Positions 55,722 through 56,264 of a DNA stretch of 64,000 bases are shown in pieces; within the stretch, counting starts at the first letter, position 1, and every line of letters starts with the position of its first letter. The translations under genes and the position numbers were made by a program. This DNA comes from Escherichia phage EcM-vB1. Where the stretch lies: sequence record PV574017.1. One strand, given 5' to 3'. The notes beneath the pieces were generated by a model. The model ran no database searches. It had not been told where the DNA came from and saw only the letters and a program-made list of their open reading frames with translations.

Positions 55722-56264
55722 TTAAGCAGGTGTTACACCAGTAAAAGTGCATGTTGCATTGATAGACGGAGTATCTTTCAAACTAGCTTGAACAGTAACT
55801 TCACCACTTGCAGCAGCATCTAAGGTTAACGCACCAGCGGCGCTTACTGTACCAGCTTCTGTAGGAGTTACAACAAACGTGTAATCCGCAGCAGCAGAAT
55901 TAGTTACAGTAAACATGGTAGTGAAATTAGTGGAGGAACCACCAGTTTTACCCGTAATTGGACCCTTAGCTACAATAGTAGGAGCAGGAGCAACAATTTC
56001 AGAAATGGTTGCTGTACCAGAAACACCTTCTAAAGTTGCAGTAATGGATACATCAGTGGATTGAGACGCACTCGGAGCAGTATACAAACCCGACTGAGTG
56101 ATAGAACCACCTCCTGTCACTGACCAAGTAAAGCCAGTTGTTTCGGTAGAACCATCACTTTTCTCCGCGCTTGCAGTGAACTGCCGAGTAGCCCCTGTCT
56201 CTAGACTTGCTAAAGACGCAGGGCTAACAGTCACACTGTCTACTGTTACGCCGCCACCTTTCCC
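55722..56264 (-). CDS. Ig-like (Big_2) domain ORF, probable C-terminal extension of the capsid protein by -1 frameshift
   Basis: two Big_2-like repeats; frame open back to the slippery site 56258-56264; stand-alone start would be a GTG with poor SD. Confidence 0.5.
   Translation of the reverse strand, partial: GKGGGVTVDSVTVSPASLASLETGATRQFTASAEKSDGSTETTGFTWSVTGGGSITQSGLYTAPSASQSTDVSITATLEGVSGTATISEIVAPAPTIVAKGPITGKTGGSSTNFTTMFTVTNSAAADYTFVVTPTEAGTVSAAGALTLDAAASGEVTVQASLKDTPSINATCTFTGVTPA

Follow-up and report, generated by a model that had tools for sequence, protein, structure and literature searches.

A very probable −1 programmed frameshift joining the major capsid protein to two Ig-like domains in Escherichia phage EcM-vB1

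In Escherichia phage EcM-vB1 (sequence record PV574017.1), a −1 programmed ribosomal frameshift very probably fuses the major capsid protein (MCP) to two immunoglobulin-like (Ig-like) domains. The stretch of DNA analyzed, hereafter “the window,” is 64,000 nucleotides long and is the late-gene region of a Kuravirus, a prolate podophage of E. coli of the phiEco32/SU10 kind. An earlier note on this DNA had proposed such a shift as the source of a minor, Ig-bearing capsid form; the sequence evidence supports the proposal, which has been published for near-identical phages. What the earlier note did not recognize is that the feature has been described for a known phage group. The capsid-Ig frameshift is therefore a correct re-discovery and is not new. 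The frameshift reading is adopted because the slippery heptamer G_GGA_AAG is conserved, its GGA codon is unique in the gene, the open reading frame (ORF) encoding the Ig-like domains has no conserved start, and the two frames share a transcript whose terminator comes only after the Ig ORF.

Read 5′ to 3′ on the minus strand, the capsid gene ends with TTC ACT GCT GCG GGA AAG GTG GCG GCG TAA. The heptamer sits in the zero frame of the capsid ORF and follows the X_XXY_YYZ pattern of canonical −1 frameshifting. It had been placed four codons before the capsid stop and is found there, at 56264..56258, the TAA (56248..56246) being the fourth codon past AAG. In the −1 frame, bases 56246..56257 read as a Gly-Gly-Gly-Val linker: the reading after the slip is AAGK followed by GGGVTVDSVTVSP, the −1 frame translation at the junction is GKGGGVTVDSVTVSP, and the predicted junction peptide of the fusion contains FTAAGKGGGVTVDSVTVSPASL. 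The shift was also said to lead into a 170-aa ORF, and the frame is indeed open for 178 codons, down to 55722. The predicted fusion comprises MCP residues 1–349 plus 178 aa, giving 527 aa and 55.7 kDa (55.67 kDa). With the zero-frame product at 38.66 kDa, the computed difference is 17.0 kDa, close to the ~18 kDa that had been foreseen. The heptamer itself is described as “highly shift-prone” in E. coli (PMC5009743), and it is the slip sequence of lambda G/GT (PMC3296357).

Codon usage is anomalous precisely at this site. The 26 glycine codons of the capsid ORF comprise 20 GGT, 5 GGC, no GGG and a single GGA, which is codon 348 in the heptamer. Likewise, GCG encodes 3 of the 36 alanines, all within the last six codons, at and just past the slip site. 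This anomaly points to selection. The motif is not enriched: GGGAAAG occurs 7 times in the window, with 7.3 copies expected. The ORFs of at least 100 aa on both strands hold 52 in-frame X_XXY_YYZ heptamers, and only at the capsid one does the −1 frame continue past the zero-frame stop for over 100 aa (174 aa). It is thus because of its context, and not of the heptamer count, that the slip site stands out beyond chance. No phage-encoded transfer RNA (tRNA) able to bias decoding at the slip site is present in the window. The sole other window heptamer with a sizeable −1 continuation (region 1461..1936) is C_CCA_AAG at 1702 on the plus strand, within a 100-aa ORF (1461..1763), where the −1 frame runs 57 aa past the stop into ORF 1730..1936. 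This may be due to chance; the second half of ORF 1461..1763 is unlike coding sequence.

The extension was expected to carry a double Big_2 domain, which is essentially right. The Pfam Big_2 profile (PF02368) scores 27.6 bits against a curated gathering cut-off of 22.8, in two stretches, the best at residues 105–164, and an AlphaFold model built with 22 homologues shows two beta-sandwich domains at a mean predicted local distance difference test (pLDDT) of 96.6. Domain 1 is drawn chiefly from this model, the second Pfam stretch being weak. A tandem Ig-like segment from Leptospira LigA ranks first among the PDB matches (E 3.5e-11), which also include the Ig-bearing phage proteins SU10 nozzle, T5 pb6, and phi29 gp8. 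Among solved structures none contains the extension, and the SU10 capsid entries hold only the 352-aa form.

Conservation was followed in capsid loci taken from IMG/VR, metagenomes, and GenBank phages. In every Kuravirus locus examined, which together offer 18 distinct junction variants in addition to the LAMP/Bas92 type, GGGAAAG is unchanged. The spacer is 3 nt longer in the Paul and NJ01 types, and LAMP and Bas92 have another linker and another zero-frame stop. The heptamer also occurs in phage Privateer, and other slip sites are found at the same position in remoter relatives. The −1 extension measures 178, 179, 180, 264, 372, 437, 455, 459, or 545 aa in Kuravirus, and in seven loci (L014, L021, L022, L023, L043, L045, and L046) it spans 178–545 aa even though capsid protein identity never falls below 93%. 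Its growth seems due to repeated Ig-like modules being gained or lost, and the Paul type has a distinct C-terminal domain besides. The shell evolves far more slowly than the decoration.

The capsid stop and the Ig ORF are not separated by any terminator-like site, which puts the capsid gene and the Ig ORF on one messenger RNA (mRNA). An intrinsic terminator follows the extension (Table 1), and one is annotated at the same place in SU10 and Paul. In the proposed mechanism, this single mRNA, ending at 55717..55694, would carry both the capsid gene and the Ig ORF. The majority of ribosomes would stop at the capsid TAA and release the 352-aa major capsid protein. In a minority, at the point where GGA is paired with tRNA-Gly in the P site and AAG with tRNA-Lys(UUU) in the A site, both tRNAs would slip back by one base, re-pair with GGG and AAA, bypass the stop, and allow 178 more codons to be read. 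The 527-aa product would retain the full capsid fold up to Lys349, followed by a glycine-rich linker and two tandem bacterial Ig-like domains. Since the capsid fold is complete, the longer product should co-assemble, entering capsomers as a minor subunit, with the Ig domains held on a flexible C-terminal linker, presumably at the outer surface. The shift frequency may be near the ~4% of lambda's identical heptamer; by analogy, ~29 of 715 subunits (the SU10 count) would be Ig-tagged, or ~70 at a frequency of 10%. Two downstream hairpins may help. Displayed Ig domains are usually proposed to bind surface carbohydrates weakly, and glycan adhesion is the function suggested here as well.

Could the Ig ORF simply be translated alone? 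Its only candidate start is the GTG at 56234, which the earlier note had described as having a poor Shine-Dalgarno (SD) sequence, and rightly so: the best anti-SD duplex upstream reaches −4.8 kcal/mol without a GGAG core, versus −6.5 to −11.4 kcal/mol for six adjacent late genes starting with ATG. From this codon a free 170-aa protein (16.6 kDa) would be made, acting as a capsid-binding decoration or in another role, and the heptamer would be incidental. The codon exists in phiEco32-type and LAMP-type sequences, but in most Kuravirus lineages it is replaced by ATA or GTA, as in the NJ01-, Paul-, L005-, and Bas87-type relatives. In the relatives, the first possible start of the −1 ORF lies 11–59 codons into the first Ig domain, with no GGAG upstream in any of them. 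Because of these internal, SD-less starts, the annotated Ig start differs from record to record, by up to ~30 codons. The ORF is given as 4167..4679 in EcK-vB (L020, PV591327) and as 1087..1599 in phiEco32 (L048). ORF finders and most GenBank records thus do list a separate gene, without agreeing on where it begins. The SU10 structure paper treats gp10 as a possible minor capsid protein lost in purification (PMC9509320), which would suit an independent protein; the longer capsid form reported in virions (PMC4281155; PMC7881722) would not, and neither would an invariant heptamer containing the gene's only GGA. Independent translation is accordingly judged improbable. The −1 frame, open over 178 codons, lacks a translation start of its own, and its GTG, without SD and not conserved, is probably merely an internal valine codon.

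The same two products would also arise if RNA polymerase, and not the ribosome, gained or lost a base in GGGAAAG. Transcriptional slippage of this kind is known as another route for some phage genes (reviewed in PMC5009743), but it normally needs homopolymers much longer than three G and three A, as is well established. The motif is moreover the exact X_XXY_YYZ ribosomal pattern in the right frame, and the site is that of the lambda G/GT ribosomal shift, which leaves polymerase slippage very improbable. Still harder to credit is the absence of any recoding, with the heptamer and the open −1 frame as a coincidence or a relic and the Ig ORF silent in this phage. The chance-level heptamer count in the window would agree with it, as would SU10, which seems to have lost the extension without obvious harm. 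Yet the extension is modelled as two confident Ig domains, its frame is open in all other Kuravirus loci examined as well as in Privateer, contig L035, and the LAh9-like loci despite much sequence change, and the unusual codon choice at the slip site speaks for selection. A −1 ribosomal shift from the capsid frame is thus the preferred reading.

This capsid-Ig frameshift has a history in the literature. The first evidence is reportedly that of Savalia 2008 for phiEco32, to which it is credited in later papers and in a note to the Paul RefSeq record. That record carries a joined coding sequence (CDS) with the comment [quoted passage not shown] The SU10 genome paper places GGGAAAG in CDS9. According to it, the shift would append the Ig-like domain of CDS10 to the head protein “as in phage phiEco32,” and two forms, of 38.5 and 55.4 kDa, are reported (PMC4281155). 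For Privateer, two capsid bands were seen by sodium dodecyl sulfate polyacrylamide gel electrophoresis (SDS-PAGE) and mass spectrometry detected the minor capsid protein; according to the same paper, the product of the shift had been seen in phiEco32 and SU10 (PMC7881722). Slippage was also described for “YF01 and other group phages” (PMC9965538).

Several points weigh against a shift of this kind in EcM-vB1. The phiEco32 evidence of Savalia 2008 is taken second-hand, through later papers. The longer form is known from virions of relatives in the literature, and for the present genome it is predicted from sequence alone. Most GenBank records, phiEco32 included, list two separate genes. No strong, well-placed stimulator is seen: hairpin 1 reaches only about −4.4 kcal/mol, and folding z-scores run from +0.25 to −1.5. 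Finally, cryo-electron microscopy (cryo-EM) of SU10 saw no Ig density, and no longer band was visible by SDS-PAGE (PMC9509320; PMC9965538). Flexible and sub-stoichiometric Ig domains would average out in a reconstruction. Furthermore, in the deposited SU10 sequence an insertion of 1 nt ends the −1 reading after 11 codons, which would explain why no extended capsid form appears in SU10 cryo-EM; a stop 39 nt downstream in the deposited −1 frame has already been matched to this absence (PMC9965538). Compared with all relatives, SU10 (L002, KM044272) shows three clustered changes at ~2664..2686, equivalent to 56247..56226 of the window: G>C, the 1-nt insertion, and G>T. Through these three, the inverted repeat of hairpin 1, otherwise imperfect, becomes a perfect palindrome, AACAGTAGACA-C-TGTCTACTGTT. 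A single template-switch event (quasi-palindrome correction) would fit this pattern, as would an assembly artefact.

A stimulatory structure 5–9 nt downstream of the slip site, or an upstream SD-like element, is common in −1 frameshifting and is not obligatory. To our knowledge, lambda G/GT is generally held not to need a downstream structure. No SD-like element was seen by eye upstream of the slip site. Downstream of 56258, where RNA structure had been suggested as a check, two abutting hairpins are indeed predicted, with −22.5 kcal/mol together; single-sequence folding of the window against shuffles gave z-scores of −1.5 and +0.25, neither significant. The two were aligned over 13 distinct sequences. 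The stem of hairpin 1, which begins 12 nt after the heptamer in the Paul type, is invariant except for one mismatched closing-pair cell (in LAMP), and its loop is variable; because there is no covariation, the alignment neither supports nor refutes it.

Hairpin 2 is more informative. Of its cells, 91% are paired, two-sided changes occur at columns 61:75 (GC/UA/AU) and 62:74 (GC/UG), and RNAalifold predicts its helix too. One partner of the covarying pair is the wobble position of a serine codon, where changes are synonymous; the other is the second base of a codon that varies (E/P/Q/L). For the two hairpins together, none of 500 shuffles reaches the observed covariation score, and slid controls pair 29–52% of cells against 93.8%; yet one of these controls, the −1 slide, scores slightly higher for covariation (0.170 vs. 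0.142). These changes trace to only ~3 independent lineages, the metagenome scan having yielded just 18 loci and few new lineages. The covariation evidence is suggestive, and hairpin 2 is a candidate frameshift stimulator only, or simply mRNA structure. RNAalifold also proposes a long-range helix between the slip site and bases ~75 nt downstream, in which every column is invariant or close to it. The SU10 stem-loop of Mirzaei et al. was rejected as a downstream block: its loop holds the slip site, so that its 5′ arm is already unwound when the ribosome is on the heptamer.

Beyond Kuravirus, the same capsid family offers several variants. In Privateer, whose MCP is 57% identical, GGGAAAG abuts the stop and opens a 169-aa I-set + Big_2 extension, annotated as a joined CDS. 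In metagenomic contig L035 (49% MCP identity), C_CCA_AAA leads into a 213-aa Ig extension. LAh9-like Aeromonas phages and related contigs (57–66% MCP identity) have no canonical heptamer, and all have AAG GTA AAG. The LAh9-like loci (L008–L011, L018, L030, L031, and L036) share CTG AAG GTA AAG (G_GUA_AAG) at the capsid 3′-end, the site sequence being CTGAAGGTAAAGGCGTAAGCGCCCCTACGGGCGT. There, the open −1 frame begins 61 nt before the capsid stop and continues into a Big_2 or I-set ORF of 88–169 aa, in which the first 14 codons after that stop contain no start codon. L008-type contigs have a GC-rich hairpin 6 nt after G_GUA_AAG, and the LAh_9 record gives a truncated, separate “I-set domain protein.” The LAh9-like loci probably use an unannotated, non-canonical −1 frameshift. 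The combined proposal that the hairpin pair 56248..56191 assists the Kuravirus site and that the capsid-Ig fusion extends, unannotated, to LAh9-like Aeromonas phages and related uncultured contigs is tentative, and somewhat more likely to fail than to hold.

In 7-11-like phages (~56% MCP identity) there are two capsid genes, and a Big_2 tail is fused in frame to the longer one. Tandem short and long paralogues are found in L016 (Salmonella phage 7-11), L032, and L047 (PKM.Lu.22.1); the long paralogue of 7-11 has 585 aa (SU10_MCP plus in-frame Big_2), with a terminator annotated between the two genes. Three tandem capsid paralogues are present in L019 (Aeromonas phage APT65). Duplication of the capsid gene is an alternative to frameshifting for producing two capsid forms. 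As read from these loci, the family repeatedly mixes plain and Ig-tagged subunits, by several routes. This fits the published view that Ig domains join phage structural genes in or out of frame and are expressed by any workable route (PMC5009743).

How does the system compare with others already known? phiEco32 (gp11/gp12), SU10, Paul, and YF01 have the same gene, heptamer, position, and Ig extension, without essential difference, except that the present extension, at 178 aa, has just two domains and is short beside the 545 aa of Paul- and YF01-type phages, and that the −1 frame is closed in deposited SU10. Privateer (Grimontviridae) also has a capsid of the SU10_MCP family, a 3′ GGGAAAG, and a −1 Ig-like extension, with both species in virions (PMC7881722); it differs by its more distant capsid, by the position of its heptamer, and by an extension of I-set + Big_2 rather than two Big_2-like domains. 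Lambda G/GT has the identical G_GGA_AAG, an E. coli host, tRNA-Lys(UUU), and a stop just downstream, with an efficiency of ~4% (PMC3296357), but it concerns a tail assembly chaperone and not a capsid, its extension is non-Ig, and its product is no virion component. T7 10A/10B, T3 gene 10, Lactobacillus phage A2, and Listeria phages A118/A500/PSA all make a minor capsid form by a shift near the gene end, and in T3 and A2 the frameshift-derived extension is Ig-like (PMC5009743); these phages nevertheless have unrelated capsid families and other slip sequences, the T7 extension is not Ig-like, and the PSA shift is +1 (PMC5009743). The analogy with T7 10A/10B drawn in the earlier note accordingly holds for a minor longer form made by a −1 shift near the 3′-end, and fails for the slip sequence, which is that of lambda G/GT, and for the nature of the extension. 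The phi29 gp8 protein and the 7-11 long paralogue are also capsid proteins with a C-terminal Big_2 on the shell, but their Ig is fused in frame and needs no recoding; 7-11 presumably fixes the ratio of its two forms through having two separate genes.

An accurate annotation would be a joined CDS at GGGAAAG. Among the inspected records, only those of Paul and Privateer carry one; EcK-vB, phiEco32, and the BASEL Kuraviruses still give a separate Ig gene with arbitrary starts, and the Ig ORF of EcK-vB bears an unrelated enzymatic note (conversion of alpha-N-acetylneuraminic acid to the beta-anomer). Weak attachment to host or mucosal glycans is a candidate role for the Ig domains so displayed. 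Close relatives differ in how many they carry, which matters for Kuravirus therapy. The capsid C-terminus is also a natural capsid-display site of possible use.

Table 1. Features of the capsid-Ig locus, in window coordinates.
Feature	Position	Strand	Description
Major capsid gene, zero frame	56246..57304	−	352 aa, 38.7 kDa (38.66 kDa), HK97 fold, Pfam SU10_MCP
Slippery heptamer G_GGA_AAG	56258..56264	−	Zero-frame codons GGA348 and AAG349 of the 352-aa capsid ORF
Zero-frame tail, Val-Ala-Ala-stop (GTG GCG GCG TAA)	56246..56257	−	Product of non-shifting ribosomes
−1 frame extension	55722..56258	−	178 codons plus TAA (stop at 55724..55722)
Hairpin 1	56225..56248	−	Predicted; 7-bp stem UAACAGU/ACUGUUA, ~−4.4 kcal/mol, starts 9 nt after the heptamer
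Hairpin 2	56191..56224	−	Predicted; 13 bp, −17.0 kcal/mol, abuts hairpin 1
GTG taken by ORF finders as start of a 170-aa Ig protein	56232..56234	−	From the ORF listing
Ig-like domain 1	56001..56246	−	Extension residues ~5–86; AlphaFold model, PDB tandem Ig matches, second Big_2 stretch
Ig-like domain 2	55728..55982	−	Extension residues ~93–177; Pfam Big_2 and model
Intrinsic terminator	55694..55717	−	10-bp stem (6 GC) then T run; starts 5 nt past the extension stop

The surroundings of the junction leave little doubt as to the phage group. Over 1.8 kb, the nucleotides are 100% identical to those of Escherichia phage EcK-vB, 98.7% to phiEco32, and 97.9% to SU10, all of the genus Kuravirus. The minus-strand gene order in the window is portal, small ORF, scaffold, capsid, Ig ORF, adaptor, and tail fibre, and the order portal, scaffold, capsid, adaptor, fibre is shared with SU10, phiEco32, and Paul. 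Pfam identifies SU10_portal, SU10_MCP, and SU10_adaptor in neighbouring ORFs. The capsid ORF itself matches PF17236 (SU10_MCP; E 9.3e-77) and, over its full length, the solved SU10 major head protein 7z45 (E 9.3e-236). By tblastn, it is 99.1% identical to the SU10 MCP and 100% identical to the MCPs of Bas90, EcoN5, SGF2, and ev_rybdy8, as well as to that of IMG/VR contig L003, with which every base of the junction segment is shared, from 30 nt upstream to 95 nt downstream of the heptamer.

Further along the minus strand, the tail-fibre gene is split into two overlapping ORFs, 53594..54859 and 52584..53684 (421 and 366 aa), where phiEco32 has one unbroken ORF. At their junction (53680..53682), the window and EcK-vB have GGG versus GGGG in phiEco32. 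This 1-nt deletion in a G run is either a homopolymer sequencing error or a real frameshift mutation.

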